Source: Tubulanus polymorphus
Taxonomy: Eukaryota > Animalia > Nemertea
Length of the DNA: 64,000 nucleotides
Assembly: GCF_964204645.1 (NCBI RefSeq)
Contig: NC_134026.1
Span: forward strand, 11,555,950 to 11,619,949
Direction of reading: 5' to 3'
Both the position numbers and the translations under genes were made by a program. The notes under the pieces are model-generated. The model was given only the letters and a program-made list of their open reading frames with translations, did not search any database and was not told the origin of the DNA. Below are positions 1,379 through 44,919 of this stretch, piece by piece. Each line of letters begins with the position of its first letter. Position 1 is the stretch's first letter.

Positions 1379-1432
1379 TAGGGTTTTCTGTTATTTCACA
1401 GAAAACCCTATTGATATCCGCGTGATTATTAT
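1379..1432 (+). mobile_element. Stacked 5' head of the outer Helentron-type non-autonomous element (HINE family A)
   Basis: Hairpin TAGGGTTTTCTG-ttatttca-CAGAAAACCCTA followed by (ATT)n. The same 54 bp is repeated at 1433-1486. Confidence 0.75.
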
Positions 1433-2513
1433 TAGGGTTTTCTGTTATTTCACAGAAAACCCTATTGATATCCGCGTGATTATTATTATTATTATTTTCT
1501 TCCACACTATTTTTACCAAAAGAACATAGGCTTTGTTACCTTACCGCTGTTTCATATACAATCCATATAATATCGTACAGCTCACTGAGATCTACAAATA
1601 GCCCGCGTGTTTTTTCACGAATCATCGTTATAAAAGCGCTGTCGGGCCGTAAACATCGAAAATTTAGCCCCATTCAATGGGGCGACATGTTTTTCGAGGC
1701 GTCATCCCGAAATCAACCCGCAGGCCGACTGTCACTTCGATTATCAATTCAAGTATAAATGAACTAATTTATTGCCGCAGACTTCACATTCAGTCGCGGT
1801 CTTCAAACAGTGATTTTAACAATAGCTCATTTTCCTCATCAAATCATATTACCGATACACTGGAAATTTACTACTTAAGATTTTAAAAGCACTGTCGAGC
1901 CGTTACTACATCGACGTTCCGGGGATCAGCTGCAAGTTTCTCCTCATCATGAGAATCAAATCGAGTACAAATTAATTTATTACTACCAGTGATTTGGCTG
2001 CGGGTTTCAAGGAGTTAGTTTAACAATACCTATTTTTCTTTACCGAATTAACCGTGTATTTACTAAGATAAATCTTTAGTGTACCGGGGAATCGTAGGCC
2101 TAAACTAAACGCGCCGAAGAGATATATCGGAGAAAAGCTGTTATGTCGACGAGGTATCAAAATAAAAAAATATATTACTTTATCCGGCCGCGGGCTTCAA
2201 CCTCTACATCAATACCATCAATACTCTATATTTCCTACAGTACATACCGATCATTGTCAAATGCACAAGGTATTTACTAAATACAAGTATATAACACACT
2301 CCTTTCCGTATGCTGGACTGACACTTGACATTCAGAGTAAGTGTTCGCTGTGGGGGAAAGGAGATCATTCGTTGTGTCGCTTGAAGTGTTTATCGAGTTT
2401 TACGCGACCTTAAGGCTTTAGTATGGTGGCTGATAAGATAAAAACACACGAATATGCAAATGAGGGCGACATTACGACAAAACGACAAAACAAATAACGC
2501 GAGAAAACAAGGA

Positions 2514-4030
2514 TTTTGTCGCCCGCGACAATTCATTATTTTGGTTTTGTTACACGCGACAATTCAATATTTTGGTTTTATCGCCCGCGACAATTCATTA
2601 GTTTGGTTTTATCGCTTGCGACAATTCATTAGTTTGGTTTTGTCGCCCGCGACAATTCAATATTTTGGTTTTGTCGCCCGCGAAAATTCAATATTTTAGT
2701 TTTATCGCCCACGACAATTCATTACTTTGGTTTTATCGCCAGCGATGATTCATTATTTTGGTTTTGTCGCCCGCGACAATTCTTCTTTTGGGTTTTTTCG
2801 CCCGCGACAATTCATTATTTTGGTTTTATATTTTGTTTTTGTCGCCCGAGACAATTTTCTTTTTTGGTTTAATTTCAATATTTTGGTTTAATCGCCCGCG
2901 ATAATTCATTATTTTGGTCTTGTCGCCTGAGACAATTATTTTGGTTTTATCGGCCGTGACAATTCATTATTACGGTTTTATCGGCCGCGACAATTCATTA
3001 TTACGGTTTTATCACATGCGACAATTCATTATTTTGGTTTTGTCGCCCGCGACAATTCACCATTTTGGTTTTGTCGCCCGCAACAATTCACCATTTTGGT
3101 TTTATCGCCTGGATAATTCACCATTTTGGTTTTGTCGCCCGCGACAATTCATTATTTTTGTTTTGTCGCCCCGACAATTCTATTTTTGGTTTTGTCGCCC
3201 GCGACGATTCATTAGTTTGGTTTTGTCGCCCACGACAATTCAATATTTTGGTTTTATCGCCCACGACAATTCATTACTTTGGTTTTATCTCCAGCGACAA
3301 TTTATTATTTTGGTTTTGTCGCCCGCCACAATTCTTCTTTTTGGTTTTGACGCCCGCGACAATTCAATATTTTGGTTTTATCGCCCGCGACAATTCATTA
3401 TTTTGGTTTTATCGCTTGCGACCACTCATTAGTTTGGTTTTGTCGCCCGCGACAATTCAATATTTTGGTTTTGTCGCCCGCGAAAATTCATTATTTTGGT
3501 TTTATAGCCCACAACAATTCATTACTTTGGTTTTATCGCCAGCGACGATTCATTATTTTGGTTTTGTCGCCCGGGACAATTCTTCTTTTTGGTTTTGTGG
3601 CCCGGGACAATTCATTATATTGGTTTTATATTTTGTTTTTGTCGCCCGCGACAATTTTCTTTTTTGGTTTTGTGGCCCGGGACAATTCATTATATTGGTT
3701 TTATATTTTGTTTTTGTCGCCCGCGACAATTTTCTTTTTTGGTTTTGTCGCCCGCGACAATTCATTATTTTGGTTTTATTGGCCGCGACAATTCATTATT
3801 TTGGTTTTATCGCCCGCGACAATTCATTATTTTGGTTTTATCGCCCGCGACAATTCATTATTTTGGTTTTGTCGCCCGCGACAATTCACCATTTTGGTTT
3901 TGTCGCCTGGATAATTCACCATTTTGGTTTTGTCGCCCGTGACAATTCATTATTTTGGTTTTGTCGCCCGCGACAATTCAATATTTTGGTTTTATCGCCC
4001 GGGACAATTCATTATTTTGGTTTTGTCGCC
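2514..4030. repeat. 31-bp tandem satellite with internal palindrome
   Basis: Unit TTTTGTCGCCCGCGACAATTCATTATTTTGG; TTGTCGC and GCGACAA are reverse complements. Further arrays at 5190-5432, 6855-7658 and 62962-63296. Confidence 0.95.
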
Positions 4031-5189
4031 TGAAGAAAATTTTGAAGACGCTTTGATCAATTACCTTGATCTTTCCTTTATATTTGAATCTACCAAAGGC
4101 CCATCAGCATAAGAAAATTGGGTCGATCTGACTCAAGATGGCCGTCCTATGACCTTTTTAGTGCCCAAAAATGTCAATTTTGGCCAGAATTCTAGGTCCT
4201 GTAGCTTCCTACTGGTTTGCCATTTCTCATTGCAATTGCTGATGCATATTCTTTAGAGAGGGATGTTTTATACTTGGGACAGGTATTTTTGATCAGCCAA
4301 TTATGACGCAATTGGCGGCCATCTTGGTGTCATCAGTACTCATTCGTAGGTGGGAAAAAGTTTTTCCACAATTAATTGATACCTAAGCATATTGTGTTAC
4401 TATATTCAATTGGAAAGTTGTAGCCCATAACGTGTTCTATGATTTTGGTGAGTTTCAAGGTCATTGGTTTTTGTATGTGGCCATCAGGGGGCGTTGAATA
4501 ATACAATAACTTAGTATCGCTATATTATATTTGTACCAAGGCATATATTGTTACCATGATCAATGGCAAAGTTGTAGTTCATGACATCGTCTATGATTGT
4601 GGTGAGTTTTTAAGGACATTAGTTATTCCATATAGTCACCAGGGGGCGTTGAATAGTAGAAAAGCTTAGTTTTTCCTTATTAGATTGGTACCTAGGCATA
4701 GTTTGTTACCATGATCCATTGCAAAGTTGTAGTTCATGACATCGTCTATGATTGTGGTGAGTTTTTAAGGACATTAGTTATTCCATATAGTCACCAGGGG
4801 GCGCTGAATAGTAGAATGGCTTAGTATTTCCTTATGAGATTGGTACCTAGGCATATTTTGTTACTATTATCAATTGCAAAGTTGTATTTCATGACATGTA
4901 CTACGATTGTGGTGAGTTTTAAGGTCATTGGGTTTTGCATATGGTCACCAAGGGGCGTTGAATAGTAGAATAACTTAGTATTTCCATATTAAATTGGTAA
5001 CGAGGCATATTTTGTTATCACAATCAATTACAAAATCATAGCTGCTCACATGTTCTATGATTGTGGTGGGTTTCAAGGTCATCGGTTTTTGTATATGGTC
5101 ACTAGAGGGCGTTATGTATTGAAATTGTTAGATTGTTGAGCATTTGAAACGACTGCCCAAGTGAGCATGGTGTCCCTGGACCCCTAGTT
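4031..5189 (+). mobile_element. Nested second HINE-like element carrying a 155-bp tandem repeat
   Basis: Interrupts the 31-bp array. AGGGGGCG recurs at 4486, 4641 and 4796, with variants near 4950 and 5104 (period ~155). Ends in CAAGTGAGCATGGTGTCCCTGGACCCCTAGTT, which resembles invertebrate HINE 3' ends (recalled, not aligned). Confidence 0.6.
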
Positions 5190-5806
5190 TGGTTTTGTCG
5201 CCCGCGACAATTCATTATTTTGGTTTTGTCGGACGCAACAATTCAATAGTTTGTTTTTGTCGTCCGTGACAATTCATTATTTTGGTTTTGTCACACGCGA
5301 CAATTCAATATTTTGGTTTTATCGCCCGCGACAATTCATTATTTTGGTTTTATCCCTTGCGACAATTCATTATTTTGGTTTTGTCGGCCGCGACAATTCA
5401 TTATTTTTGTTTTGTCGCCCGTGGTTTTGTCGAAACATTAAGTTTTTGGTCGAACAGTGTGTTAAGGTTGTTTTGGAAATTTATTCGGTCTGGTATATTT
5501 TGGATTACTGTGTATGTCATTTGTCAGGACATTAAACAGAAGACGACTTAGGATACTACCTTGCGTGACTCCACTAGTTAGACCGTCTCACTCCAAGATG
5601 AGGCGTTCCGTTGATTTCGGTTACAAGTTTCCGTTCAGAGATAACTGCTGTGCCATTTGAGCGACCTATCATTGATACTGTTTCCTAATATCCTGTTCAG
5701 TAATGGCTGATGTTGAGCCTTATCAAATGCTTTGTTGAAATCCACTGTTGAACAGGATTCTAAGACTGTGCAGAAAACCCGTTATCGCTGCTTTGCAGCT
5801 ATATTT

Positions 5807-7975
5807 ATTATTATTTTCTTCCACACTATTTTTACCAAAAGAACATAGGCTTTGTTACCTTACCGCTGTTTCATATACAATCCATATAATATCGTTCAGC
5901 TCACTGAGATCTACATCTCTAGCCCGCGTGTTTTTTCACGAATCATCGTTACAAAAGCGCTGTCGGGCCGTAAAAATCGAAAATTTAGCCCCATTCAATG
6001 GGGCGACATGTTTTTCGAGTCGTCATCCCGAAATCGACCCGCAAGCCGACTGTCACTTCGATTATCAATTCAAGTATAAATGAACTAATTTATTGCCGCA
6101 GACTTCACATTCAGTCGCGGTCTTCAAACAGTGATTTTAACAATAGCCCATTTTCTCATCAAATCATATTACCGATACACTGGAAATTTACTACTTTAGA
6201 TTTTAAAAGCACTGTCGAGCCGTAAACATCGACGAATCGACGTGTGTTACTTCATCGACGTTCCGGGGATGAGCTGCCAGTTTCTCCTCATCATGAGAAT
6301 CAAATCGAGTACAAATTAATTTATTACTACCAGTGATTTGGCTGCGGGTTTCAAGGAGTTAGTTTAACAATACCTATTCTTCTTTACCGAATTAACCGTG
6401 TATTTACTGAGATAAATCTTTAGTGTACCGGGGAATCGTAGGCCTAAACTAAACAGGCCGAAGAGATATGGCGGAGAAAAGCTGTTATGTCGACGAGGTA
6501 TCAAAATAAAAGAATATATAACTTTATTCGGCCGCGGGCTTCAACCATTTATCAATACTCTATATTTCCTACAGTACATACCGATCATTGTCAAACGCAC
6601 AAGGTATTTACTAAATACAAGTATATTAACACACTCCTATCCGTATGCTGGACTCACACTTGACATTCGGAGTAAGCGTTCGCTGTGGGGGAAAGGAGAT
6701 CGTTGGCTGTGTCGCTTGAAGTGTTTATCGAGTTTTACGCGACCTTAAGGCTATAGTATGGTGGCTGATAAGATAAAAAAACACGAATATGCAAATGAGG
6801 GCGACATTACGACAAAACGACAAAACTAAAATAACGCGAGAAAACAATGATTTTGATTTTGTCGCCCGCGACAATTCATTATTTTGGTTTTGTCGCCTGC
6901 GACAATTCATTACTTTGGTTTTATCTCCAGCGACAATTCATTATTTTGGTTTTATCGCTTGCGACAATTCATTATTTTGGTTTTGTCGCCCGCGAAAATT
7001 CAATATTTTGGTTTTATCGCCTGCGACAATTCAATATTTTGGTTTTATCGCCCGCGACAATTCACCATTTTGGTTTTGTCGCCCCGACAATTCTATTTTT
7101 GGTTTTATCGCCCGCGACAATTCATTAGTTTGGTTTTGTCGCCCGCGACAATTCAATATTTTGGTTTTGTCGCCCGCGACAATTCATTATTTTGGTTGTA
7201 TATTTTGTTTTTGTCGAACGCGACAATTTTTTTTTGGTTTTGTCGCCCGCGACAATTCAATATTTTGGTTTTATCGCCTGCGACAATTCAATATTTTGGT
7301 TTTGTCACCAGCGACAATTCATTATTTTGGTTTTATCGCCCGCGACAATTCATTATTTTGGTTTTATCGCCCGCGACAATTCATTATTTTGGTTTTGTCG
7401 CCCGTGACAATTCACCATTTTGGTTTTGTCGCCTGGACAATTCACCATTTTGGTTTTGTCGCCCGCGACAATTCATTATTTTTGTTTTGTTGCCCCCCAA
7501 TTCTTTTTTTGGTTTTGTCGCCCGCGACAATTCATTACTTTGGTTTTATCTCCAGCGACAATTCATTATTTTGGTTTTGTCACCCGTGACAATTCTTCTT
7601 TTGGTTTTGTCACCCGCGACAATTCATAATTTTGGTTTTGTCGCCCGTGGTTTTGTCGGATTACTTTTTTGGATTACTGTGTATGTCATTTGTCAGGACA
7701 TTAAACAGAAGACGACTTAGGATACTACCTTGCGTGACTCCACTAGTTAGACCGTCTCATTCCAAGATGAGGCGTTCCGTTGATTTCGGTTACAAGTTTC
7801 CATTCAGAGATAACTGCTGTGCCATTTGGGCGACCTATCATTGATACTGTTTCCTAATAGCCTGTTCAGTAATGGCTGATGTTGAGCCTTATCAAATGCT
7901 TTGTTGAAATCCACCGTTGAACAGGATTCTAAGACTGTGCAGAAAACCCGTTATCGCTGCTTTGCAGCTATATTT
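5807..7975 (+). mobile_element. HINE family A body (outer copy, lacks an adjacent head)
   Basis: Near-identical to 1487-2510 and 5500-5806. Starts in (ATT)n and ends in CAGAAAACCCGTTATCGCTGCTTTGCAGCTATATTT. 31-bp array at 6855-7658. Confidence 0.75.
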
Positions 7976-7993
7976 CATATTTATTTTTATATT

Positions 7994-9513
7994 AAGATGG
8001 CCAATGTCTGTCCACTTTTAAAGAAACCTAGTTTGAACAAAGAGGACCTTAAGAATTACCGTCCTGTTTCCAACTTACCTTTCCTATCTAATGTACTGGA
8101 AAAAGCTGTTGAATCTCAGTTAGATCATCACCTTACTCAACATGATTTAGGTGATAAGTTTCAATCTGCTTATAAACCCTTACACTCTACAGAGACTGCT
8201 CTCTTAAAGATTCATTCTGATATTACAGTAGCCCTAGATGACGGCAATGTAGTCTTACTTTTAATGCTTGACATGTTGTCAGCAATTGATCGTAATGTAC
8301 TTTTAGATAGGTTGAATTTTTCTTATGGTATTTCTGATATTGCGCTGTCTTGGTTACGGTCGTACCTCTCAGATAGAACCCAGCGTGTATTAGTTAACGA
8401 TCATCCATCTATTGAGAAAGTGGTTGAGTTTGGCATTCCTCAAGGTTCTGTTCTAGGACCTAAATTATTTTGTTTAAACACAGGCCCGATTGGAGATATT
8501 TTTAAAAAACATGACTTGATGTATCATTTATATGCTGACGACTCTCAGGACTATGTTGTTGTGAAGCCTAAGCTTGAAAACAATGATCTTGGTATCGTGA
8601 AACTTCAAGACTGCTTACGTTATTTAAAACCATGGCTTGTTAGCAGTGGCCTTATGCAAAATGATTATAAAACTGAATTTTCTGTGTTTTGTCCTCCGGC
8701 AATGACCTATCTTTGCAAAGATCTGTCATTACAGGTAGGAGCTTGCAGTGTCATTATTTCTGATAACATTCGAAATCTAAATGCGTAATTTTTGACCGGA
8801 ACCTTACAATGGAAAAGCATGTTCTAAAAATTTATAAAACCTGTCATTTTCATTTAAGAAATTTATAGTAGAATTAGGAGATTTTTAACAGAGGATGCTT
8901 GTAGAGCCCTACTCCAGGCAACTGTTATATCTAGGCTAGATTATGCTAACTCTCTTTTATATATCCATTCTGATCTGCTATGTAAATTACAGAGAGTTCA
9001 AAATGCTGCTGCCAGAATTATTTCAATGGAAAGTAAAAGGAACCACATTACTCCTGTTCTAGCCAAACTTCACTGGCTTCCAGTTCATTTTAGAATTGAA
9101 TATAAAATTTTGTTGTATGTATATAAAGCTTTGAATGACAGTGCACCGGAGTATATAAAATTCAATGGTATCTGTCTATGTTCCAGCACATAATTTACGG
9201 TCAACTAATCAATTTTTACTTGATGTACCTCGTTTTAGAACTAAGCGCTATGGTTTACGTTCTTTTACTTGCACTGCACCAGTTTTGTGGAATGCTTTAC
9301 CCATCCACATCAGATCTGCCAAATCACTACAATGTTTCAAAACTCATCTTAAAACTGAACTTTTCACCAGACATTTTAACTAAATTCTTCATGTGAATGT
9401 TTTAAATGTTTTGTAAGATGTTTTTAGCTTAATGTTTTTATTTGTAAAGCGCTTTAGAGCCTTTTTTGGATTAAGGCGCTATATAAATATTGTATAATAA
9501 TAATAATAATAAT
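7994..9513 (+). mobile_element. L2-clade LINE ORF2 3' part (reverse transcriptase), 3' UTR and (TAA)n tail
   Basis: KMANVCPLLKKPSL..NYRPVSNLPFLS, GIPQGSVLGP, YADDSQ, LHWLP, AP.LWN.LP. L2-type 3' stem-loop AAGCGCTTTAG...AAGGCGCTATATAAAT followed by (TAA)n. Continues the reading frame broken at 1378. Confidence 0.92.
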
Positions 9514-10776
9514 ACCCAATTGCTGAACCGGGTTGGAATTCCTCAAGATTTGAAATCTAGAAATCTTGCTGTAGGTGAAAGAAACACTTGCCTTCAGAAA
9601 AGAAAATACTCTTGTGACGAGTTGGAAAGATAAGTGCGTTGTTACAATGATAAGCAGTTATTACAAGGGCGATTCGTTCGTTGAGAAAAGAACTTTGAAC
9701 TTGAAGTTTGCATTACCAACGCGTTTATATTGTACAAAATAACAAGGCCTGTTGATGAACAGAATCGGTGTATTTTGGTGAAATTTTGTGGATCATTGGT
9801 TAGGGCCCTTGTTGATCGAGCGAGACATCCAACACCTGAAATAAGGAAGGGAAGACCAAGGGAAGGACCACCACTTCCGCCATTGGATCAGCAGTATCAC
9901 GAACTAAAACTAGGAGAAGATAGATTTTGGAAAAGAGACTGCAAAAATTGTAGCAATCGTGCTGAAGGAAATCGCCGTGGAACCAAATATTTCTGCAATA
10001 CGTTTGGAGATAAGCCTGCGCTCCATCCGACGCCGTGTTTTCATAAATACCATTCACAGAATAATTACAAATAATTCAAGCTGTGTGAACTTTTGAGCAA
10101 TAGAAACCAACAGTTACTTCATTTGAAAAACTTGTTCATTTTTTATTTTTTTGACGATTTGGACCCTGGCCCAAAAATTTAACCCCTACCTATTTGAACC
10201 TAGCCCCCCCCGCCCAATTCAGATGCCCCAGTGATCACTAGACCCCTCAATTTATAAAAAAACGAGAATAATATAATATCTGTGATGGTTCTGTGGGTCT
10301 TATCAGAATAGAATCTCTTTCCTTATAATATCTTATTAAAAGCTGAAATTTTTCAAAAAATCATGAATTTTGATATATCGGATTTTGGACCCCCTTTCTA
10401 TCAAATCTTGTCAAGACCTTATGGACCATACTTTTTTCATAGCCAATAGGTATATCTACCTATATATAGGGACAAATATTCATTCTGGGGACATTTTCTA
10501 TTATTCAAAATGACTTATTTCTCATTTTTTGCATAATTTTCACCAATTTCGTCAATTTGGGGGTCCTTCTTGACCCCCCTGGACAGATGATATGAATGAA
10601 ACTCAAACTAGCAGGAGTTTTACAAACTAGAAGGACCTACTATTGATGTCCAACCATTTATTTGCTCTTCCCTTATCCAATTACTGTGCTACAGCACTTA
10701 CAAAACCCATAATAGACCCAAAATTAAATCAAATCACTTCAGACGTTTTTTTTTTTAAAAAGTCGATACTGAAAGG
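9514..10776 (+). mobile_element. piggyBac transposon 3' remnant
   Basis: Translation gives GIPQDLK...SWKDKCVVTMISS and the C-terminal Cys-rich domain CKNC...FCNT...LHPTPCFHKYH. Subterminal GGGGTC/GACCCC motifs. End ...ACTGAAAGGG with the TTAA missing. Confidence 0.75.
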
Positions 10777-11970
10777 GCTCTAGATATATAGGACATTTTT
10801 ATGGTAGGAAAATGACACCAAAAACTCTGGTTTCGGTTGAGCAATTTTGATGCCAGGGCCTTTGTTGTGAACCAGCGAAGCATGAAGCCAAGGCATTTGT
10901 CTTAGATGAATTATTCAAGCGTGAACGGGATTAAAATTATCATTTAACGTAATGATTCATGTAGCCATAACAGATCAAGGGTTTTTTACTTGAGTCATTT
11001 TGAACTATCTGGGCTAGAGGAAAGATGGCAAGACCTCAGTACTCCATCATTCATGGTTCTAAACTACAACCGAACGGAAAACCTGATGGAGACACTCCGA
11101 TTGTTTCATGAACGGTATCCAGAACCATGGCAACAAAAGTACAGTGTTCCGACACTATGTTAAATATCAGACCCATGGCACCAGCTTTCACCGAAACAAG
11201 GGCAATTCTGGGCGACCTCGAACTGTCTCAAAACGGAGGAAGCAATTGCAGAATTTCGAGAAGCCGTAATCAGGGATCCCTACCAGAGCAAGCGACGAAA
11301 CAACTTAGGTGTGACAGAAACGTCATTCACTCGTTTGATTAAGGAAATCAGATTTCATCCTTACAAGATGCAAATAAGACATGGATTGAGCCCACAGATC
11401 CACCAAGGAGAGTTGCCTACTGCATGGTTTGGAGAACTACCTAGGGACATGATAATACATGCCATGGCGGACATGTACAGGCGAGCTGAAGTTTGTATTC
11501 GAGTGGAAGGTCATCAAATTGAAGGACGTATCTGAGAGCAGCTAGAAATCAGGATAATGTGATGATACTCTTCATGCACAAGGCAACAGGGAAATGGATG
11601 TACATGTTCTGTTAAGTTTTTGATTATGTTTAGTTGAGTGCTTGCTAAATCAGCAACGGAAAAGCTAAATTGTGTCATACTTTCCTGCATAATTTAAAGT
11701 TTGAAAATAAAGCGTATTATTTTATTCCGGTACGATTATCTGTTTGTCAACTGTGTGTGGAAATCCTTGTGGAGTAGAAATTGAGTTCAAATTCCATTCA
11801 ATAGAGGCTCTGACTGGTTCACAACAATGGCCCTGGAATCAAAATAACTTGAGCGAATCGAGAGTTATTGGTGTCATTATCCTTCGAACAAAATTTCCTA
11901 TCCATCAGTATAAAAATTGAAGGCCTCTGAAAAGTGGAAGTATTGGGTCGCGTTTTTTTTTTGACAACTG
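10777..11970 (+). mobile_element. Tc1/mariner-type element (DUF4817-like HTH), internally deleted
   Basis: Imperfect inverted repeats ~10813-10875 and 11813-11876. Broken ORF from 11025 reads FMVLNYNRTENL...NKGNSGRPRT...FHPYKMQIRHGL. No catalytic DDD region seen. Confidence 0.75.
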
Positions 11971-12440: not shown

Positions 12441-14131
12441 GTCTTAGCAACCAACTTGAAAAATTAGCATCTGATAAATCAATTAACCATCTGATATGCC
12501 ATAAATCCATTTACTGACAGGATCCTTTAAACATTTTGTAAAAATATCTTTGGTCATGGACATCCAGCAATAAAATATGATAACTGTTTGTAAACTTCAG
12601 GTTAAATAGGCCTAGTTGATTCATTGCAATTAATTTGAATCAGCCTTCAAAAAGTTAGTCTGTACATTTAGGGATGATAACAAGGCCTAGCCCAATTATG
12701 ACCAATGTTAAAATTAATTCATTCAAACAGGCTGCCTTGGCAAATGTGGTAGGTCAACAAAAAGAGCGTGGAAGAGGATTGACGACCAACAATTGTACTG
12801 GGTGTTGTTTGGTGGACACCAGTGTCATTTAGACCAGGACATGGTACTCGAGGAGTAAACGGTAAGTAACAGCCTCTAATACCGAATTCATTTGAATTGA
12901 ATGATGCATCGTGTTTGAATCCTGGTGAGGTACGTTACATTATCAGCGGTAGTGAAGAGGTTAAGCGGTTTTTGTAGGTGCTAGTTCCAAGTTGAAAACT
13001 TGAAAAATTTTGTTAATTTGAATTGGGTTGACATAGTTGATTGAGGTGGTGCAAACCAATTACCATCCTGTTGGAAACAATCACATTAATGCTGATATTA
13101 CTGATTTGAAAACAAGTAATTACCATTCAACTTTTGGGTAACTGCAACAAAGGTGTTGGAATGTAGAGCAGTCGGTGAGTAGTATTTGTATTACAGATGA
13201 TAGATTAGCACTATCCCAAGTGGTATATTTAATATTCATTTGTTTGCAAGTGATTGTACGTATTGGGTGAAAGTGATTCACCGTCATGTTGTTGCTCGAT
13301 CGCATAGTATTTCTAGAATTGAAACCATCTCTGATTAGTGAGACAGAGATATGTTCAGTGCTTATGACACAAGGGGTGTTTGAGTTAGTTCTCAAGGATC
13401 CCGGAAGCCGGAAGCACGCACGTTTCAGATAAATGGCTTTTCAATCAAGGTGGCATCTGTTGGCTTTTCTGGTAGAGAAAGCGTTGCAGAGTTGTTGGCA
13501 GAGGCTGTAGAAAGGAAAGCGATTTCCGAGGCTCAGCGCCATTTGAATTCTATCAAGAAGGATTACACGCAGCGTAGTTTTTTGCAATCAAGGCTAGACT
13601 CTTGTCTAGATTGGCTGCAAAAAACTACACTGCGTGTACTGTTGATTATGAGCAATCAAGCTATGTGATGAGCGTTGACACTGGGAATTTTTGGGTTTTA
13701 CTACAGATGTTTATTCAGCTTAAATACAAACATGGGTTCCCGCAGTTTTTGGCAAGAGTCACCACTTGAGGTCAGTGACCTATGATTTGTAGGTTGTCAT
13801 GTGTCTAAGTGTTATATAATTCATGCCATCTGTTAATGTGTAGCTATGTTCATTCCCCTTTTGGGTTGAATGGAGTAGCATTTAGTATAAATATATACTG
13901 CATATTTGTCGAATTTATGCGTTCGTTTTGGTATTACTACAGGTTGATTAATCTGACCCTTGAGCCGGCCTTCAGACCGGTTAGTCATCGCAGGTTGAAA
14001 GGCGGAGTCGGTTTTGCCAGATCAAAGTGCGGCTTCTTAAAAAAAAAAAAGCAAATTCACCCCCTTACTTCCCTGTTTTCCTACAACTTTGCAATTGATT
14101 GTGGGAACAAAATATGCATAGGTATAAATAT

Positions 14132-15845
14132 AAATTACAATTTTTGGAACTAAAATTTGTATTTCCGAGTAGTACTTACCCTCTCCTATGGTTTTTGCCA
14201 ATATTTTCTAAATTTGGATTGATCGCCAATGGTTTTTCTATACGACCCGGCCCTGCGGTATTGCATTTAGCCACTGGCGATATCATCTTTTTACGTCATA
14301 GCAGACACAAAAATGCAGCTATGCGGGACAGGTGGGCGGGATTCCCACCATAGGAAAGGGTAATTACTACTCGGAAATACAAATTTTAGTTCCAAAAATT
14401 GTAATATTTCCGTCGAGTACTGTACCCTTTCCTATGGTTTTTGCTAGACTAGCCTAGCACAAGGATGGTGGGAAAGGGAGATAGAAAAAACACCACTCAA
14501 ATGCAAGGTAAGAGGGAAAAAAGAGAGCACTTACCCAAGCACGGAATGGAGCCCTGTAGCACAGGGAAGACCGGTTGGCCACAGTGGTTCCACTCGATGT
14601 TTTAGGGCTTCAATTCGCCATTGACGACCAACCGAGCCTGGTCGTTGGTTCTTTGCCAAAAACTCCAAAGCAGGCCGCAGCAAAACAAATTCCTTCGCTG
14701 GCTGAAGACAATATGACCTTATCGCACTGAAAGTGCATGAATCTCAGAGCGACGGGCCGAGCAAGCCAAGAACAGCAAGAATACAGTCTTTTTTGACAAA
14801 TTCGCAAATGACGCTGCCGAAAGAGGTTCAAATGGAGCCCCCGTTAACTTCTTCAAAATTACAGACAGATCCCATGGTCAGACTATCCTCGGTACCCGAG
14901 GCTGGGAAATAGAAAACCCTGCAACAAGCTGGGATATCCAATGATCCCCTGTTACATTTGGCCGTCAAGAAGAACGCAATGTATGAGAAATCGCGGAGCG
15001 GTAACCTTTAATAGTTATAACCTGCATACCTTTTACCACAAATAGGTGCAGTAAAAAATCTGCCAATTGAGCTACAGAGGGTGAGCATGGATCAATTTCC
15101 CCTGCAGCACACCAATCTGCAAAATGGCATCGTAAATGGTCCTTGTTGATGGCCGCTTAGATCCTGTGATAAAGGAGGCAGCCTGTTCCCAAAAGCCTGA
15201 AGCTGACAAGGATCGCTGGACAATGGCCAGGCGAGCAGATTTAACCACTGGCTGTTTGGATGATGCCGAAAGTTCCCCTGAGACAGAGGCGATGGGAAAT
15301 TGGGAAGAATCCTCGTCGCACAGTAGGTTGAGAAGTGGTAGGAACCATTTCTGAGCCGGCCAACATGGTGCTACCAGAACTATGTTGCAATTGACTGATC
15401 TCTCTCTTTGATCCAGCAAGCGTGGGGGGACTGGTGTGGGCGGGAACGCACACGCATGCATCCCCGACCAGTCCAGAGAGAAGACATCGACCCCCACGCT
15501 TCTGCATCTGGAAACAAATAGAGGACACCTCCGATTGAACCAGGTGGCAAACAGATCCAGTAGCGGATTGCCAAACATGTCTCGAACCCAATCGGCTACT
15601 TCTTGGTGGAGAACCCATTCTGTCGCAATAGCCTGACCACGACAAGAGCATCGGTCATCACGTTCCTTTTCCCTGCTAAATGTGCCACAGTCAGGGAAAC
15701 GCCCTTTGTCAGGCACCAAAGAAGAATTTTGGCTGACACATCCGTGAGGATTTCTGAGTGAGTGCACCCTTGATTCTGAAGGTAAGCCCTCACTGTTGAA
15801 TTGTCTGTGGCTAACCAAACGTGGTGGCCCTCCACTCTCCTGTGA
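14132..15845 (-). mobile_element. DIRS1-type tyrosine-recombinase retrotransposon, 3' remnant
   Basis: RNase H (ATDNSTVRAYLQNQG), MT-like domain (LDLFAT, AFPP, LVAPCWPAQKWF) and YR N-terminus (SKRPSTRTIY). Terminal inverted arms at 14133-14192 and 14348-14406 plus a third partial copy at 14407-14445 (ITR/ICR arrangement). Confidence 0.85.
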
Positions 15846-16105: not shown

Positions 16106-17664
16106 CTGTGCATCTACAGTACACTGCTCGGTCATCCTTATTACCGAGATGAGGCAATTTACCGAGATCAACCGAGATGACATAAATTATAACATATTCA
16201 TTTATTCCTTATCGATTTTAACACTTGAAATCATATTATATCAGCAATAACTACCTGCTGGAGTCAGATAATTTTGTAGGAAAATAACTTTTAACTTTAC
16301 CGAGAAGATATCGTCGACTTATCTAATTCAATGAAATTTATCGTGTACCGAGATGACGTATTTGATGTCAATATGTTGCTTTTATTATATTATTATTATT
16401 AATTTATATTGAAATGCATTTTGTGCATTATTAGGCCTATGCATACGAAATTAGTTTTGGGGTGAAATAATTTCGTTTTCTTGAGTATTTGTGACATTAA
16501 GTTACTGAGATCACATTGCGATCAATTCAATATATACTATCGATTTCACCGAGATTAAACCAAAAGTTAATTTCACTTCAGATTTTGGTTGAAAAATAAA
16601 ATGTTTTTCATTTTTAATGATATTCGGTACATTACATTACTTTAAAGATTGCATTAACATTGTATTTTTCTCAATAAATTTCTTTTTTCTCACTTAATTA
16701 ATTTTTTTCAATAAATTTCTTTGAATTCCGATCTCAGTTTTAAGTTATTTTTCTACAAAATATCTTGCAATATTCTAGAAGGTATTTATTACTGATAGGC
16801 ACTTCAACATTTTTGTAAAGTTATTCTAATGACCTCATAATTTGAATATCTGGTTAGAGCTTTTAAAATACTAACTTATGGTGGTTCATTTTTTATCCTA
16901 CCTCAACTAGAAGCAAAGTTATGGCAATTTTAAGATCGGGAAATTAGGGATAAGTTCGCAAGGGAAATGAATAGGACAATACGGATAATACTTTGATATT
17001 GATTCGACATTGTTTTAACTTAAAATGCTATAACTCCTTTATTATGACTCCAAATCACACCAAATTTGGACAGGGTGTAACTTACAACATGTGACATGCA
17101 TTCATCAACCATTAAGATATATGTATGGTACATAAAACCCCTAAATGTTGACCTATTGAAAGGTCAAAGGTCATACGAAATAATTGATGCTCCCTATTGT
17201 TCTACGCTATAAATGCGGTTCCTCCTCTAATATTCGTCCAAATCAAACCAAATATGAACAGGATGTACCCAAGACCATTCCTAATCTATTCCCATAGTCA
17301 GATTGGATATAGACCATGCAAGTTCTAAAACCTGACCTTGAATGTCCACAAGGTCACAATCTCTCGGATTCTCCAAGGAATTTTTCAACAAAAATAGAAA
17401 TATCATCTTCTGAATCAAACAAGTAACACCATATACTCTTAAAAACGTCTGAAAGACATGATGTTACTTGTTTCTAGAGTATATGGTGATATATGTTTGA
17501 TTCAGAAGATGATATTTCATCAGAAAACTAGAAAAAAGAACGACAGCCAAAGAACGACATATTCACTATATAGCTCAGTAATTATAAATGCCGTTGAAAT
17601 GGCAATCGACTACGATCAATTCACCTTTTCATACTCGAGACTTTCATACTCCAATTCATGAAAG

Positions 17665-23193: not shown

Positions 23194-23437
23194 CCACCAA
23201 CGATTAGGTAACTAACTAATTACTGATATAACATGATTTCAAGTGTTAAAACGGTTAAGGTTAAGAAATTGTTGACAAAAATACTATATTTCATGTCACC
23301 TCCGTTCATCTTGGTTCATCTCGGTAAATTGTGTGATCTCGGTAATTAGGAGGACCCACATGCTGCATTATGGCAAAAAAATATCCACTCAACTTTTTCA
23401 ATGTAGGCCCACTTTCTCTCTTCGTTCTTGTTTTGAC

Positions 23438-24731
23438 CACAGGGACTTGTCACAATTGATAGTGAATGAATAAAACCAATATCAATGACCAGGTCCACTA
23501 TCCCTGTATAATATAAAAAACAAGGGTGGCAACAAATTTTCAATCTGACAATGACTTCTCCACTTCAATCGACTGTAATTCCAAAAATTCTCAACCGATT
23601 CACATGAAATAAGCTTTAATACAACCTAGAAGACTTTCTGCTTCCAACGAGCCTTTAACCACCACTCTAGGACAATTATCTCACAACGAAATCACCGTTT
23701 TTTGACGAGAGATAGCTCAAATTGGAGGTGTACCGATTCTATGGTGGACAGCAAAATGGTCGTATTTTTCACTTCAAACGATGATTTCTATGTGAAATCT
23801 TAGAGATAACCCCAACAAACCATACATTTTTTAAAACTACGCGGTCATACCTGTACGCTTATCTCATTTATTTGTATAATCCACGCGATGGGTGAGCTCG
23901 CAAGCTCAAAATCGAACAAATATACGAAAAAGTCACCTCGCACTATCGCGCTGGCGGCCATTAATCACGTGACGTGCAGGTTCGGGCTATGTTAATAGAA
24001 CCGCGACAAGTCTACGTCTGTAGACTTGAAAAAAGGAAATATTTGCTAATAATACCACCCCTCAGACGAATGTTGCACTATATTTTCATAATACGGATAT
24101 TTTATTAATTAACAGAATTTTTAATAAATTTTGTAATGTTTTTCGAAATCTCTAAGCCAATCAATGCGCGTGAAATATTTAGCCCGTTACTACGATATCA
24201 CGTGATTAATGGCCGCCCAGTTGATGACAAGTTGAACGCCGTGTTCGTCCTCATTTTCGATTTTGAGCTTGTGAGCTCACCCATCGCGTGGATTATACAA
24301 ATAAATGAGATAAGCGTACAGGTATGACCGCGTAGTTTTTAAAAATGTATGGTTTGTTGGGGTTTTCTCTAAGATCTCACATAGAAATCATCGTTTGAAT
24401 TGAAAAAAACGACCATTTTGCTGTCCACCATAGAATCGGTACACCTCCATTTTGAGCTATCTCTCGTCAAAAAAAGGTGATTTCGTTGTGAGATAATTGT
24501 CGGAGAGTAGTGGTTGTAGGCTCGTTCGAAGCAGAAAGTCTTCTAGGTTGTATTAAAGCTTATTTCATGTGAATCGGTTGAGAATTTTTGGAATTACAGT
24601 CGATTGAAGTGGAGAAGTCATTGTCAGATTGAAAATTTGTTGCCACCCTTGTTATTTTATTATACAGTTGCAGGGATACTGGTACCCCCATCATTGGTCT
24701 CATCCATTATCAGTCGTGACAAGTCCCTGTG
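23438..24731. mobile_element. P-superfamily-like foldback element
   Basis: TIR CACAGGGACTTGTCAC and GTGACAAGTCCCTGTG. 8-bp TSD GTTTTGAC (23430-23437 and 24732-24739). Internal ~470-bp inverted arms at ~23504-23975 and 24197-24667. Confidence 0.85.
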
Positions 24732-24803
24732 GTTTTGACAAGAAAATGTCAAAAAAGGTCAGATTTTGATGAAAGTTCCAAAATACACACTAATAATACA
24801 AAC

Positions 24804-26844: not shown

Positions 26845-29578
26845 CTGCGCGCCAAATTCAAAATGTCGGTGACGCGAACTCAAAGAGTCGAAATTCAGAG
26901 GCGACGTCAAGAAGATGAAACGACCGCGCGTTCGTTCGAAAAAGGAGTTACTGAATACAGGTGATTTTCATGGTCAGCAGAAACGACATCTCGGAGTAAA
27001 ATTACGGAAATAGCACAGAAGATATAGGCCTACCATACTATTATTATTACAATTACTATTACTAATTACAGCGACGAGAGCGTTAAGTTGGCATCGTCAG
27101 AGGATTGAATTTAAACAGACGATGAACTGACGGAGAATTTACAATATTTACAGGATTGTAAGTGACGAGTTTATCGGCAGCCCATGGCCGACGACTACAC
27201 GACCCCCGAGTGCGTCGGCACTCGGGACTCACTGAGGGCGGGATGTCAAAAACCACTGCAGCGATCCCGGGGTCAGACGACCCGGAGGCCCGTGTCTTAA
27301 TTAGAGAGTAAAATTGTCTTCTTACATGATCTGCACGATTTACAGCGTCCGATTCGTAAAACGGTGAAGAGGCAGCAAGCAGAGTTTCTAATGTGGCTCT
27401 GCCAGAGCCAAGTTGCCAATGAGCGCGATTGCGCCAAATTTATAGTTTTCATGCGGTCAACGCACGCGGTGATTGGTCAAGCGTGACGAGCAGTGATACG
27501 ATCCGCGGACAAAGTAGAGCACGCGAAATCATTCGACCGTGACGAATGATAAAACCCTAAATAAAGACTTCATACGCGAGAAATAGAATTAAGTTATATA
27601 ATATTTTAAGATTAACGCGAAAAATGACGACTATAAGACCGATACGGAGATATTTACTAAAAATAAACCGGAGTTAACCGCACCACCGCGAAAACGCTCA
27701 CACGGAAGTGAGGCGGCGCCAGCGAACGGCGTCGTAAAAACGAGCGTAAACACGAGCAGGGCTGGAGAATTCTCCGGCGACGAGACGGAACCAAAACGGC
27801 CCAAAATCAAAGAAGTTGGGTCTCGAATATAAAAAGGAGAACACACACTAATAGGTAGGCGGAGGATAAAAGAATGGCCTGGACAGGCGCCGAAAAATCG
27901 CTAATGTCACCGCGATGTGGCGTGGCCAACACCGCGGGGGCCTGCCCAGGTCGTGAAATTGGAATCTGACAGGACTGCCAAAAATCTGTCAGATTGAAAT
28001 TGAGCCGAAAAGATCCCGAAACATCGTCGCAGAACACCCAGCCCCGTCCCGGAATACGTACATCTATAAAGAAACAATGAGAAAAGAACGGCTTAAGGCC
28101 ATTCCGAAATACATAATATAATTTCACCAAAGACCGACATTTTGTGGTCAAACCCACCCCAGATATTGACAATTTTCGCCACAACACAATGTCAATGTTG
28201 ACTTTGCTAGAAATCGATTATAAAATTCATCACGACCAATTCTTTTTCACTGAATTCAATATTTATTGTTCACTTCTGGTACAAAATCTTGTTCAGCCCC
28301 TGACAAGAGATTAAGCAATGACATTACGTATTTCATGACATAGAACAGTAGCTTTTTTTTCATCGACAAATTGGGACGATCCTGATATCCCTGATTTGAA
28401 TGATAGTGTCTTTAGAATCATAGAGACCATGTCTCGACCAGACAGATAATCCAATCACAATTCAAATTGAAGGCTCGCTAGTGCAGTTATTCACAGAATC
28501 CAGCTCTTTAAACCTCATCAGTTTATCAGATCGTGAGCAGTGGAGAAATAAAGTACACAACATCTTGGCGCAGCAGCGCTTGCTGATGTAACTGATGATG
28601 ATGAGTTTATCAGAATCAAGGAGTTTCACCGCCTATTATTTGGAATCTCAATTCATGACAGCTAGTGCTGATTCTTTATTCTCTTTGATTAGTGCATGAG
28701 GTTATCATTCTGAAATTAAAATACATATCACACTGTTACAATTAAATCTGGATTGACTTTACAATTAATGATTCAGAATCCATTTTTCAAACTTACCTTG
28801 ATGCATTGCAATCTATTCTTTTCATGTTGAGCTAATTTGATATGCATTATTTCAATTTCTTAAAACATCCTACAAGTTGTGACTCACAAAATCATCGCTA
28901 AAACGCTCACAATAATCTACAATAGATAATCGATACAGTGTTTGTGAAATAGAATATTCAATGACAATGTTCACATTTTTACGAAGTAAGTATGTAGGTG
29001 AAGTTACCTTGTTGATGTCATTATTTTCATTGGATCAACTGCTGGTGTCCAATGTCACATTAAGAACAATCAATCAATCGCCTCGAGTGAACAAACAAGT
29101 AGCCTCTGCTGCATAGTTCAGTATGTCACTAGTGGTATAAAGTGGTATTTTAGTAGTATTGTATGTATCGGTCATACTAAACACCGTCAGGAACCGCCAG
29201 GAACCGTCAGACACCGTCATGAACTCACGGGTTATACTAAACACCGTCAGGAAATAAAAAACAATGATTGTGAATTCTAAAATTGAATATTTTATATTAA
29301 AATCAACACTAAATGAGACCTACTGTGCAAATTGAATTTGGAAATAAACTTTTTTAAATAACACGAGTTTTCCTTGGTAAACTCAACAATACGCTGTGCA
29401 AATTGAGCACATTTTGTGAAATAAATCTTTTCGTAATATATCGTAGTTTTTAGTTTCTTAGTTTGAGTTAAACTTTTTTCCGATTTTGTTTCTAAATCTA
29501 ACAATCACTTTATTTTTCCAAATTGTTACTTCGAAATGACAACAAAGTGATTAATAAATTGCAAACTGGGTCTGTTCC

Positions 29579-30000
29579 ATGTTCCATGTTTTCGTTCCAA
29601 CGCAGATCGAGAAACGTGTTCCTTTAAACTGGACTAATAATAATTGCGAAAGTATGAACAATCTCATAAAACTATCGACGAATTGGAAAATTTTGAAAAT
29701 TCCTGATCTCATTGAGCGCCTGAATAGTATAGTAGATCTGCAGTATGCAGATATTCCCCGAGCCTTACACGGTCAAGGAAACTACCAAGTTTCGCCTCGT
29801 TTAAGCAGACACGTCGTTTCGCACGTAGTATGGTGTAAAAAATCGAAGGAAGAAAAGGATGCGATCATGAATACATTTTTCAGTGCAAAATCAAAAACAA
29901 AATCGATCGAAAAAGAAAAGGATGCGATCATGAATACATTTTTCAGTGCAAAATCAAAAACAAAATCGATCGAAAAAGTTATCAAGTCCAGTTACACGTT
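29579..30000 (+). pseudogene. Mutator/MULE transposase C-terminal fragment with a 63-bp internal duplication
   Basis: WTNNNCESMNNLIK..WK...PDLIERL...Q...RALHGQGNY. The segment EKDAIMNTFFSAKSKTKSI is duplicated. Confidence 0.7.
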
Positions 30001-30786
30001 ACTAACCGTATTTACTGTGTTTTATTGGGTTTTTATCGAAGAATGTCTGCGACGGGGAAAACATGTGCTGCCCCAAGCAAGTGTCGCATTACCGAGAACC
30101 CCTCGCCCACTGAGGGCAAATCGGTTAGGTCTAATAAAAGTGAAACTGAGCCTAACAAAAAGGAAAGGAAGGGTATTGTTTCTGCCGACTCGGCCAGCAC
30201 CCCCGTTCCGGGTCCATCTAAGCCCCAAAAGGACCTGCTTTCTAACACAGGTTCAGCAGAATTTCTCAGCCTTATTGAAGGTGTGGTAGCTAAGGCAGTA
30301 AATGAGCTTCAAAAAGGGGACTCCCCTCATATCGCTCACCCTAAAAAAGGGAAACAGCCTAAATCTTGTGTTGCCAAGACACCAAAACATCCAAAGTTTG
30401 AGCACGTTTGTAATATAGCTATTTCCAGAATCCCAATGTATTAAATTAGGCAGCCTGAAAAATTCATCCCAATCAGTCGCTTGCCGGTTCAGACTGAATG
30501 GAAGATTGTTTGGATGAACCGGAACCGAATTTCCAATTATGTACTTCAATTTAAAAATATTCTGTTAACTCGACCGCCGATCACACATCTATATCTGTAC
30601 TTCGATTTCCGATTTCAAAATCAAACCCCCTGTTTCGCTCCCGGCAGGTGTGGTGGGTCTGTAAGGGACACTCAATCGAAAAATCAAACAAAATTTACCA
30701 GCCAAATAAATGAATAATGGGGACAATCCCTATTTTAAGATCAAAAAACAAAAAAAAACACCTCGGACTCCGAGGAAAGTGTCTCT

Positions 30787-31371
30787 ATGGGTGACGATTA
30801 CATAAATGCAGACACTGCAACGCTCCTTAGTTATGATGAGGACATTGATGATTTCTTGAATGAAGAAGTTGGGGGAAAAATGTCGGACCCCAATAACAAT
30901 GACTCTGAAGTCGATGACTCCTGGATCGATGACATTGCTTCTGACATGGGTCAAAACGAGCAGTTAGGAGACAAGATAAATGAGAAATTGGCAGGCATCT
31001 TGAATAAATTAGCGACAAAACGTCTCACTGACGATGCCATTAAAGCTCTATGGGCAAAGTATTTACGGCCAGAGAATCTGAATGTTCAAAACCCTAGGGT
31101 AAACCAGACGATCTGGTACAAACTAAAACATTTCACGAAGAAGCGTGACCTCCGACTTTCACAAGTCGGGGAGAAAATCTCTAATACCTTGAACGCGCAA
31201 CAGGCTGAATTGATTAATGATTTGAGTGATTTGAAGGCCAAGTTAAAAAGGCCGGAAGATAGACAAAAGGTCGTTGAATGCTCCAGAAAAACGTTTGACG
31301 TTTTTCAAATCTCTGTGGTTGCTTTACATGAATGCAACCAAGAGACCCGGAGTTGTTTGGATCAAATTTAG
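30787..31371 (+). pseudogene. DIRS gag-like ORF1 fragment
   Basis: YLRPEN...PRVNQTIW...RDLRL motif typical of DIRS1 ORF1; lies upstream of RT. Confidence 0.7.
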
Positions 31372-31659
31372 GTGACAAGGTCAAAGAGCTGAATGATGCA
31401 GCTATTATGGGGAGGAAACTCAGTAATCTGGAAATACTGACCAACAACCTCATCAGTATGGCAGGAAGCCGGCCTCGCATTTCGCTCGACGTTTTTAGGA
31501 AGAGGCAGGCGGCCTGCACCGTACCCGCCTCGGAAGATGCACCATCAGAAGCAAAACGACATAGGGAGGAGAAAGAAAGGCCAACAATAGAGGCATGTAG
31601 GTTTAACCAAACCTCATGGAAATCTTTCATAGGGGCTACACTCAAAAAAGGAGAAACGC

Positions 31660-33320
31660 TTGCCAAAAACTTCCAGGCAGGGTCTCTTAAAAACCATTAT
31701 GCCTACTGGAATTCACTTTCTACTGATCATAATATTTTAGAGATGATCAGAGGGTGCAGAATTGAGTTTGACAAAACTCCTCCCCCAGTTCCTGAGAGAG
31801 AACCTTATAGGTTCAATAAGGAAAAGTCCTTGAGAATTGATTCTGAAATCATAAAAATGATTACTAAGAGAATAATTGAAGAAGTGGCCCCTACAAAAGA
31901 TCAATTTGTTTCAAATATTTTTACAAGGGAGAAGGCTGATTACTCGCTTCGAGTTATATTAGATCTTACCGAGTTAAATGAGTATATAACTTACCATCAT
32001 TTTAAAATGGAAAGTTTGAAAACTGCTATCAGTTTAATGTCCCCGGGGTGCTACATGGCTTCAATGGATTGGAAAGACGCATATTACTCTGTCCCTATCA
32101 ATCGTTACTATAGGAAGTACCTCAGATTTAGGTGGCGTGATAAGTTGTATCAGTTCGCTTGTTTACCTAATGGTCTCGCGAGTGCTCCGCGTTTTTTCAC
32201 GAAACTCACTGAAGTTCTATTTTCTCAAGCACGAAGAGATGGTCATTTGTGTTCTAGCTTCATCGATGATTCGATTCTTGTAAACCTGACACTAGATTTG
32301 TGTAGGGAAACAGTAGTTTACATGGTGAACTCATCGGAGCTAGCTGGGTTTATTGTTCACTGGTTGAAATCAGTTTTGAACCCCACGCAGATATTGATCT
32401 ACCTAGGATTCATTTTGAACTCTTTGGAGATGACAGTGCGTCTTACGCCTGAGAAATTAGAAAAATGTTTTTCCACCAGATTGTAAACAAGATATTGAAT
32501 GGTGGACAAAGAATCTCGCAGATCAAAAAGCCCATATTCTGAGAAAGAAAGTTTGCACTGAGATCGAGACCGATGCCTCAAATGCTGGTTGGGGGCTTAT
32601 AGGCGCCTCCCAACGCAGGAAAGAACAGGGGGCACTTGGTCAAATGTAGAAGCCAAAGACCACATAAATGTGTTGGAGCTAAAAGCCGTATTCATGGCTT
32701 TAAGGTCTTTTAGTAGGGAAACCAAAGATAATTCTACTACTGTATCATATATCTCAAATCAGGGGGGTAGGAAACAGGGGTGTAATGAAATTGCAAGAGA
32801 AATCTGGCTCTGGTGTTATAAACATAATAATTGGCTCACGGTTACGCATTTGCCCGGCATTAATAATGTTGAAGCAGACAAACTGAGCAGGTCAATTGAT
32901 GACAATATGGAATGGAAACTTAATCCAAAACTTTTTCAAAAAATTAGACAAAAATTCGGAGAAATGGAGATTGATCTGTTTGCTTCCAGACACAATTTCC
33001 AATTACAAACTTATATCGCTTGGAAGCCTGACCCCTATGCTGAATACATAGATGCTTTTAGTGAAGACTGGGCGTCTTGGTTTTTCTATGCTTTTCCACC
33101 CTTCAATTTGGTTGGGAAAGTACTTCAAAAGGTGATGTCGGATCAGGCGTCAGGGGTTTTGGTAGTCCCGTTCTAGACGACTCAGCACTGGTTTTCTAGA
33201 TTTGTCCATATGTGTAAAGAACAACCTTTTATTCTCTATAGCCGGGAAGCTCAACCAGCACTAACTCACCACTGGAGAGAGGAGCAGCAACTGCCAAAAA
33301 CAAGATTACTAGTAGGTTAG
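31660..33320 (+). pseudogene. DIRS RT-RNase H-MT ORF (interrupted)
   Basis: HFKMESL, DWKDAYY, LPNGLASAPRFFTK, FIDD, HINVLELKA, DNST, IDLFASRHN, YAFPPF. Confidence 0.9.
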
Positions 33321-33324
33321 ATAG

Positions 33325-38856: not shown

Positions 38857-38882
38857 AAGTATAGCTGCAAAGCAGCGATAAC

Positions 38883-39476: not shown

Positions 39477-39498
39477 AGTAAAAAAATATGTATAATAA

Positions 39499-40152: not shown

Positions 40153-40578
40153 GCGCTTAGAAAACCGGTTACTCTCGATCTATGTCAAACCGCCTATATG
40201 TAATTGTATTAGCTCTTTGCATCTGTCGCACGTTATATTCAGTTGAATGGGGTGTATCTCATTTGAATATTGATCGAATGTGCTATTTCAGTTGAAAAGG
40301 ATTAATCAATTACATCACAAAGGAACATCTGTTACAATCCAGGCAAACGTGCAGGAATAATTAGTTTGGACGAACGTGTGCCACGTCGGCAGTTAGAAAT
40401 CAACTTTCACATACATAGTACGTATTGGATATTCTCTCTCAAAATACAGTTTACAGTTCTAAATCTAAGTGTAAGTACCGTTTTTTGTAGTTATTATGAA
40501 GTAGGGAAACCTTTGAACATATTTAAGTACAGTAATTCATTTTTCAGTAATTCATTCATCGACATCTTTTAGATTAAA

Positions 40579-42829: not shown

Positions 42830-42835
42830 AAGAAG

Positions 42836-44895: not shown

Positions 44896-44919
44896 TTATT
44901 ATTTGTGTTAAATATAATT

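Follow-up and report, generated by a model that had tools for sequence, protein, structure and literature searches.

Probable nested self-insertion of a non-autonomous Helentron into its own (ATT)n microsatellite in the nemertean Tubulanus polymorphus

Introduction

How does a transposable element come to lie in the order head, head, body, end, body, end? This layout occupies positions 1379-7975 of a 64,000-nucleotide stretch of Tubulanus polymorphus contig NC_134026.1 (here called the window, numbered from its first letter), and the element concerned is a HINE, a non-autonomous Helentron (HLE2). The original prediction, made from the letters of the window, was that one copy had inserted into the (ATT)n microsatellite at the head of another, and that each copy brings with it a TT target on which stacked arrays can be built. 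Following this up in the window, in raw reads, and in the literature, we hold with good confidence that the layout reflects nested self-insertion into the element's own (ATT)n, at this locus and across the family. What directs new copies to this site is a separate matter, on which our views are graded more cautiously.

Layout of the focal locus

The predicted order is present in the window, where the repeats and both 3′ ends could be located. Two heads of 54 bp each (1378-1431 and 1432-1485) are identical at 54/54 positions; the second lies inside the (ATT)n of the first, and behind the first 3′ hairpin the second body resumes with (ATT)3 at 5807-5815. Once 1433-5805, exactly 4373 bp, is excised, what remains is a perfect (ATT)6, equal in length to the inner copy's own tract. 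Removing the inner copy does restore an intact element, as had been proposed, although the interval first given for it (1433-5806) is one base too long; limits of 1432-5804 or 1434-5806 are equivalent to ours. A single nested-insertion event thus accounts for both the 54-bp head duplicate and the headless body. The parts, all on the plus strand, are as follows.

1379-1432, +, outer HINE head: 5′ subterminal inverted repeat (subTIR) 1380-1390, inverted repeat 1399-1409 (13-bp hairpin), 16-nt spacer, and the left part of (ATT)n up to the cut
1433-5805, +, inner HINE, complete, 4373 bp, at AT^T of the outer (ATT)n, without target duplication; its removal gives (ATT)6
1433-1496, +, inner-copy head with intact (ATT)6 at 1479-1496
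2514-4030, +, inner copy, 31-bp tandem array of 49 units
4031-5187, +, inner copy, module with 155-bp satellite-like repeats (4359-5113), also found in the copy at 62589-64000 and not in the outer copy
5188-5421, +, inner copy, second 31-bp array, 7.5 units
5771-5805, +, inner-copy 3′ end: subTIR 5771-5780, 5-bp hairpin 5787-5799, terminal Ts
5806-7974, +, rest of the outer copy, headless: (ATT)3 5807-5815, body, 31-bp array 6850-7647, then the 3′ end (7940-7974) with subTIR 7940-7949, hairpin, and terminal Ts

Joints in raw reads

Five sequencing runs (X1 to X5) carry the one species label, and all joint counts come from X5 only: 1934 Mb of raw Illumina reads, 12 in 100 of that run, from a sample and study different from those of X1-X4. 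Reads were mapped on 900-2480 for the heads and on 5655-5954 for the end and body. Logan contigs of X1, X2, and X4 were mapped on the head region too, but being short, losing rows at repeats, and perhaps containing the source of the window, they contribute to no count. Statements on the head region concern the best 15 of 86 joints and 12 of 40 gaps, and head counts include the heads of related families.

Head depth was 4394 (two bins summed), compared to 8-20 on the flank in the host long interspersed nuclear element (LINE) described below. Joints of the form head-(ATT)2-head were found in 443 reads, or 10.1% of head depth (288 with one ATT fewer at 1425 and 155 going back 51 bp); spacers of three units accounted for 50 reads (back 54 bp) and of four units for 45 (back 57 bp). 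Among the joints and gaps listed for the head region, none had a spacer of one, five, or six units. On the other side of the insertion, 255 reads (~128 starts) joined an end to a body through (ATT)4, one ATT above the reference and 11.2% of body depth, and 53 further reads showed go-back joints within the tract. Intact head-body joints (864 reads) gave a six-unit consensus with an agreement of 0.9.

The original prediction called for stacked heads to be counted against headless bodies. Once normalized to depth, head-head and end-body joints occur at matching rates (ratio 0.90; 95% Poisson interval, 0.77-1.05), and once corrected for span the shares come to at least 15-20% for stacked heads and 17-22% for headless bodies. 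The tract lengths are complementary as well: among the joints listed, the commonest head spacer (2) and the commonest remainder (4) add up to the modal intact (ATT)6, as 3 + 3 do at the focal locus. Agreement at each single locus would not be needed, and a mismatch there would, on our analysis, not refute nesting, since double-headed chimeras can move as units, to judge from the accessible part of a Fusarium study (PMC5148889).

Joints of an end to a head through three Ts form two classes, of 577 reads (agreement 0.55) and 1092 reads (agreement 0.54), both upper bounds. We did not accept these as proof of targeting to the 3′ end; insertion before a resident head and a circle junction would give the same three-T joint.

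The 30-bp 3′ end at 5775-5804 has a read depth of ~11,000, compared to 4,500 for the focal family (family A) just upstream, and at least three other internal sequences lead into it. The excess and these further sequences together point to many families with one common terminus.

A second chain in the window

The far end of the window holds a second chain on the minus strand (36719-64000), in which three families (A, B, and C) contribute five ends, one visible head, and three headless bodies. All members share one orientation and the same 3′ end.

62588-64000, −, A-type copy, 3′ part carrying 155-bp and 31-bp repeats; the head is past the window edge, and the end adjoins the head of another family
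60704-62587, −, B-family copy, complete, with head and (ATT)22 and the same 3′ end as family A
59121-60703, −, B-family headless body starting at the ATT tract; differs from the first B copy at 62/1576 sites
56260-59120, −, A-related (C) headless body, its 3′ end split by a Polinton-like element and resuming at 38882
36719-38882, −, remainder of the split end, then another headless A-related (C) body with its end

Taking the focal locus and this chain together, all four headless bodies in the window (4/4) have as their starting point the ATT tract or what erosion has left of it; if breakpoints fell evenly along a 2-kb element, the chance of this would be ~7e-9. The mixture of families in the second chain argues against both concatemers and local duplication as a source of such arrangements.

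The element that splits one of these ends is a 17.4-kb Polinton/Maverick-like element (38883-56259), inserted between the subTIR and the hairpin of the HINE 3′ end. Its terminal inverted repeats are long, its ends read AG...CT, and a 6-bp target duplication flanks it; its fragmented frames encode pPolB, rve integrase, and chromo domains (Pfam).

Relative age of the two copies

The two bodies at the focal locus differ at 36/896 and 5/307 sites (41/1203 together), and the inner copy differs from an unlinked A copy at 48/1320. Inner and outer copies belong to one subfamily, with 14/889 sites common to both as against two C copies. Substitutions were polarized with other window copies as outgroups; we preferred this to the table of read alleles, since that table takes in only those positions at which the inner copy differs. 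Sixteen substitutions were inner derived, 15 outer derived, and 6 ambiguous (p = 1.0). Of the age relation that the original prediction implied, one half stood, in that the inner copy is not detectably older; that it is younger was not borne out by 16 against 15 substitutions.

Alleles nearly private to the inner copy were defined as listed sites at which at least 93% of X5 reads differ from it (best 40 of 580 rows, 23 of them in the body). The outer copy carries 0/14 of these, having the population allele at 13 and a third allele at 1, which argues against a later local duplication, since that would pass such alleles on. As for the identical heads, at 3.4-4% divergence they would be expected by chance in 11-21% of cases.

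Class of the element

The focal element is a non-autonomous Helentron: six of seven listed features of the class, as given in the available parts of PMC4067079, PMC2374699, and PMC11417382, were found, and the HINE label of the original prediction can be kept. Members of the class carry subTIRs of 11-15 bp, set 2-4 nt inside the 5′ end and a few tens of nt inside the 3′ end. Here the 5′ subTIR (1380-1390) is matched in complement by 5771-5780 and 7940-7949, each lying 24-25 nt before the end; this is closer than in mite HINEs, for which the accessible text quotes 38-60 bp. The 13-bp head hairpin is far more stable than expected (z of −5.8 for family A and −6.9 for family B; 0/200 shuffles as stable for the focal head). 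A stem-loop 3′ of the right subTIR, with a 5-bp stem at 5787-5799, is kept at six ends, its energy alone not being significant (26/200 shuffles fold equally well). Insertion is between Ts without target duplication, as seen in the clean (ATT)6 at the inner copy and in T-rich flanks in the reads, the outer copy carrying a 16-nt filler. A 5′ microsatellite, (ATT)n, and central tandem repeats, the 31-bp and 155-bp arrays, are present. No coding capacity was detected: of 10 frames of at least 100 aa inside the elements, 8 were scanned and 0 passed the Pfam cutoff, and weak matches to Med25 and WH_MCM2, which are below the cutoff and arise from repeats, were discarded. Copy number is high, with ~2.3 heads and 5.7 shared ends per Mb.

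Two other classes were considered and rejected. A canonical Helitron (HLE1) would have 5′ TC, a 3′ CTRR after a GC-rich hairpin, and A/T insertion; the focal element starts with T and then AGGG, has subTIRs, ends in Ts, and inserts in TT. As for a MITE, or miniature inverted-repeat transposable element, moving by cut-and-paste, the 3′-side repeats here are subterminal, and the inner site has no target duplication.

Target choice and alternative explanations

By word frequency, heads should receive 0.005% (TT), 0.2% (TTATT), or 0.6% (ATTATT) of insertions, counting 2.3 heads per Mb with five sites each against a background of 30 kb of non-HINE window DNA. Observed stacking is at least 12% raw, ~20- to 80-fold over the TTATT and ATTATT expectations and >2000-fold over that for TT. 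Within the six-unit tract, the five sites are used unevenly, head-proximal ones first among the X5 joints listed. Alignment of three heads and six ends places the used sites 21-27 nt behind the subTIR motif, and the true 3′ end lies 24-25 nt behind it. The original idea that each copy's own TT target builds stacked arrays therefore survives as nesting in the element's own (ATT)n, and it fails as to TT being a sufficient cause, given the excess over TT frequency and the skewed use of sites. It is likely that the family preferentially targets its own head sites.

We imagine that an autonomous RepHel partner would integrate at AT^T where the surrounding sequence resembles TTAT^T. The head would provide it with several such sites, 21-27 nt behind a subTIR-motif copy, a spacing like that at the true 3′ end, and would so present a terminus-like landing pad. 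RepHel bound at the resident subTIR motif may favor cutting nearby, with the head as a terminus mimic; if nesting is granted, we rate this as falling just short of an even proposition. Every insertion would rebuild the target at its left junction and supply a new one, so that end-head joints would need no separate hot spot. Copies of any family with these ends would accumulate, giving stacked heads, end-head joints, and runs of headless bodies, and read-through from the outer head to the first end would mobilize double-headed copies. One can envision, more tentatively, that the head has evolved as a self-landing pad, its inverted repeat and (ATT)n copying the geometry of the 3′ terminus, so that RepHel integrates 21-27 nt away into its own kind and sister copies would receive about a sixth to a fifth of all insertions. 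If that were true, the family would possess a built-in safe haven, heads could be swapped between families, and multikilobase arrays of satellite-bearing cassettes would build up.

Several points weigh against nesting or against its being targeted. The expectation of a younger inner copy is neither supported nor refuted, there being no age order between the copies. The heads that nesting predicts for the second chain fall past the window edge, outside the head count, and joints of the 3 + 3 type are identical to the reference spacing and hence outside the read counts. X5 reads cannot be assigned to loci or counted as independent events, and the measured excess could be raised by the spread of double-headed chimeras or by arrays amplified afterwards. 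The entire word background behind that enrichment is 30 kb of this one window. No autonomous RepHel partner with the same termini, the seventh listed feature of the class, was found among the 35 window open reading frames (ORFs) scanned with Pfam. Finally, the modal site, at 21 nt, is 3-4 nt short of the 3′-end spacing of 24-25 nt, and it is also the first full TTAT^T of the tract.

This last coincidence suits an explanation in which nesting is real and nothing special directs it: a preference for TTAT^T or (ATT)n, combined with local hopping, survival in neutral DNA, and remobilization of chimeras. Ordinary left flanks have a T-rich consensus that ends like an ATT repeat (1210 X5 reads, agreement 0.42), and chimeras with two 5′ termini are reported, in what is available of PMC5148889, to transpose in Fusarium. 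However, the 20- to 80-fold enrichment persists even when measured against TTATT and ATTATT; five equal sites of (ATT)6 were used 155, 50, 45, ≤14, and ≤14 times (the last two being assumed ceilings); and the spread of a head-head-body-end chimera alone would lift head-head over end-body joints, whereas the two rates match. We regard plain preference as a serious contender that is nonetheless clearly on the lesser side of even.

Rolling-circle replication restarting at the ATT tract could give concatemers, with headless units and extra heads from one event. Tandem Helitron arrays formed by end bypass have been published (PMC4067079, as far as its accessible part goes), the common three-T end-head joints have the form of a circle junction, and inner and outer copies of equal age would be no surprise. 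But concatemers yield end-head rather than head-head joints, and in the window the sole end-head joint links two different families, as does one end-body joint. This origin seems improbable.

Two local duplications by slippage or unequal exchange, one of the 54-bp head and one of the body from ATT tract to end, would agree with the perfect identity of the heads and with the common subfamily of the two copies. The outer copy's lack of the 155-bp module was not accepted as proof of a separate origin, as this module could have dropped out between its flanking 31-bp arrays. Yet duplication requires two events with complementary breakpoints. The absence of common private alleles, the fair chance of identical heads without duplication, the position of headless bodies in the second chain behind the ends of other families, and the population complementarity of 2 + 4 = 6 all stand against it. 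We consider this explanation largely refuted already and put it at very improbable.

An assembly artefact at the repeat is scarcely credible even though no listed contig spans the focal stretch, as raw reads from a different sample show all three joint types in their hundreds, the two bodies are distinct at 41/1203 sites, and the LINE flanks join in frame.

Relation to known systems

Nested self-insertion into (ATT)n can be set beside several described elements, for which we rely on the accessible parts of the papers cited. The HINE/DINE-1 non-autonomous Helentrons (Thomas et al. 2014, PMC4067079; Yang and Barbash 2008, PMC2374699) resemble the focal element in their 5′ subTIR with adjacent inverted repeat, microsatellite, central tandem repeats, and 3′ subTIR with small hairpin, and in inserting between Ts with no target duplication and no coding capacity. 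The DINE-1 microsatellite is GTCY rich and lacks TT, whereas (ATT)n is a row of targets; the accessible parts of both papers speak of clusters and of tandem arrays, and say nothing of copies inserting into their own microsatellite.

Oyster and clam HINEs, namely Cg_HINE of Crassostrea gigas (PMC7492417) and DTC84/pearl (PMC3879986), share with the focal element a modular build with 140- to 180-bp satellite-like central repeats, in some cases two arrays, as well as a TT preference and frequent insertion into other repeats. Their microsatellites are mostly of 4 nt, and stacked heads or headless bodies are not mentioned in the portions available; the likeness is by description only.

FoHeli1 of Fusarium oxysporum is an HLE2 element with a target given as TNAT followed by T or A (PMC5148889 and PMC13342296). 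It has multiple 5′ termini, with 31-85 nt duplicated and up to five in number, put down to self-insertion. Unlike in the focal family, several heads go with one 3′ end and breakpoints vary, and the available text describes no microsatellite site, matching headless bodies, or enrichment estimate. HelenXT233 of Xenopus tropicalis (PMC11417382) shows a pair of directly repeated left termini, each of them characteristic of one subfamily, much like the focal double head. For maize Helitrons with multiple termini (PMC3288121), nested Helitrons were proposed as the source, and insertion near other Helitrons was noted. These are single cases or canonical Helitrons, and in contrast to the focal family, no fixed site in their own microsatellite is described in what is accessible.

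We found no paper on insertion into an element's own microsatellite with matching headless bodies, in a literature coverage that was partial and left most subscription journals and supplements outside. The conserved 3′ end had no exact match in viral_contigs or metagenome_contigs. The sole match to the stacked-head pattern, L001, was dismissed as chance: it is prokaryote-like, gene-dense DNA with no hairpin pair or array, and has one 33-nt match only to the window.

The focal pattern is therefore a variant of a partly known Helentron habit. What is new is that stacked heads and headless bodies agree quantitatively, that stacking exceeds what target-word frequency predicts, and that the spacing offers a clue. 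Helentron target choice has so far been described only as "TT," with its biochemistry open, and an enriched site at terminus-like spacing offers a direct test of targeting by the HLE2 RepHel. A fixed own-head site would explain the published multiple 5′ termini, the diversity of heads among families with a common 3′ end, and the growth of satellite-carrying HINEs into long arrays. On the practical side, with about a fifth of "truncated" copies being nested, repeat libraries and copy-age estimates would be distorted.

The host LINE

The flanks of the outer copy are one single LINE (a non-LTR retrotransposon), with domains identified by a Pfam scan: Exo_endo_phos at 2-475 (E = 2.6e-5) and, for the reverse transcriptase (RT), RVT_1 at 7994-8785 (E = 1.2e-17).

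1-1378, +, host LINE 5′ part: endonuclease domain and lead-in to the RT, running off the window (Pfam Exo_endo_phos at 2-475, frame continuity)
7976-7991, +, 16-nt AT-rich filler separating the element's 3′ end from the LINE (frame-restoring excision)
7992-9513, +, host LINE 3′ part: RT domain (Pfam RVT_1) and (TAA)n-type tail at 9496-9513

With 1380-7991 excised, the LINE stays in frame and retains between Ile and Lys a Phe, which we take to be a feature of the RT motifs in this type of LINE. The interval originally proposed, 1379-7993, also restores the frame, at the cost of that codon. The 16-nt stretch might be donor flank that came along with the element, or else filler left by repair. 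Behind both chain-terminal ends (7976-7991, and just past 36719 on the minus strand) comes a brief T-rich run that finishes in the manner of the element's terminus, and such stretches could be read-through into donor flank. An empty LINE site was not seen among the loose ends listed from read mapping (best 24 of 805). Right behind the LINE tail, a frame at 9685-10071 resembles a DDE_Tnp_1-like (piggyBac-type) zinc finger (E = 2e-4, below the cutoff).

Other features of the window

Twelve matches with at most one mismatch to what we take to be a CTCF-type consensus, compared to 0.33 expected, lie at 4481-5111, 59186-61887, and 63374-63848. All of these candidate sites are inside HINE bodies and on the element strand, where they fall within or beside the satellite-like monomers of two families unrelated to each other. 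Of the 155-bp monomer, a solitary 53-bp piece in inverted orientation adjoins a 59-bp inverted-repeat element and is listed with several further long inverted repeats of MITE type (14081-14405, 10783-11906, 17397-17518, and 23425-24744). Within ~29500-34800, an RT (31332-32483) adjoins a Dam-like methyltransferase frame (32562-33173), an arrangement that occurs in DIRS-type retrotransposons.

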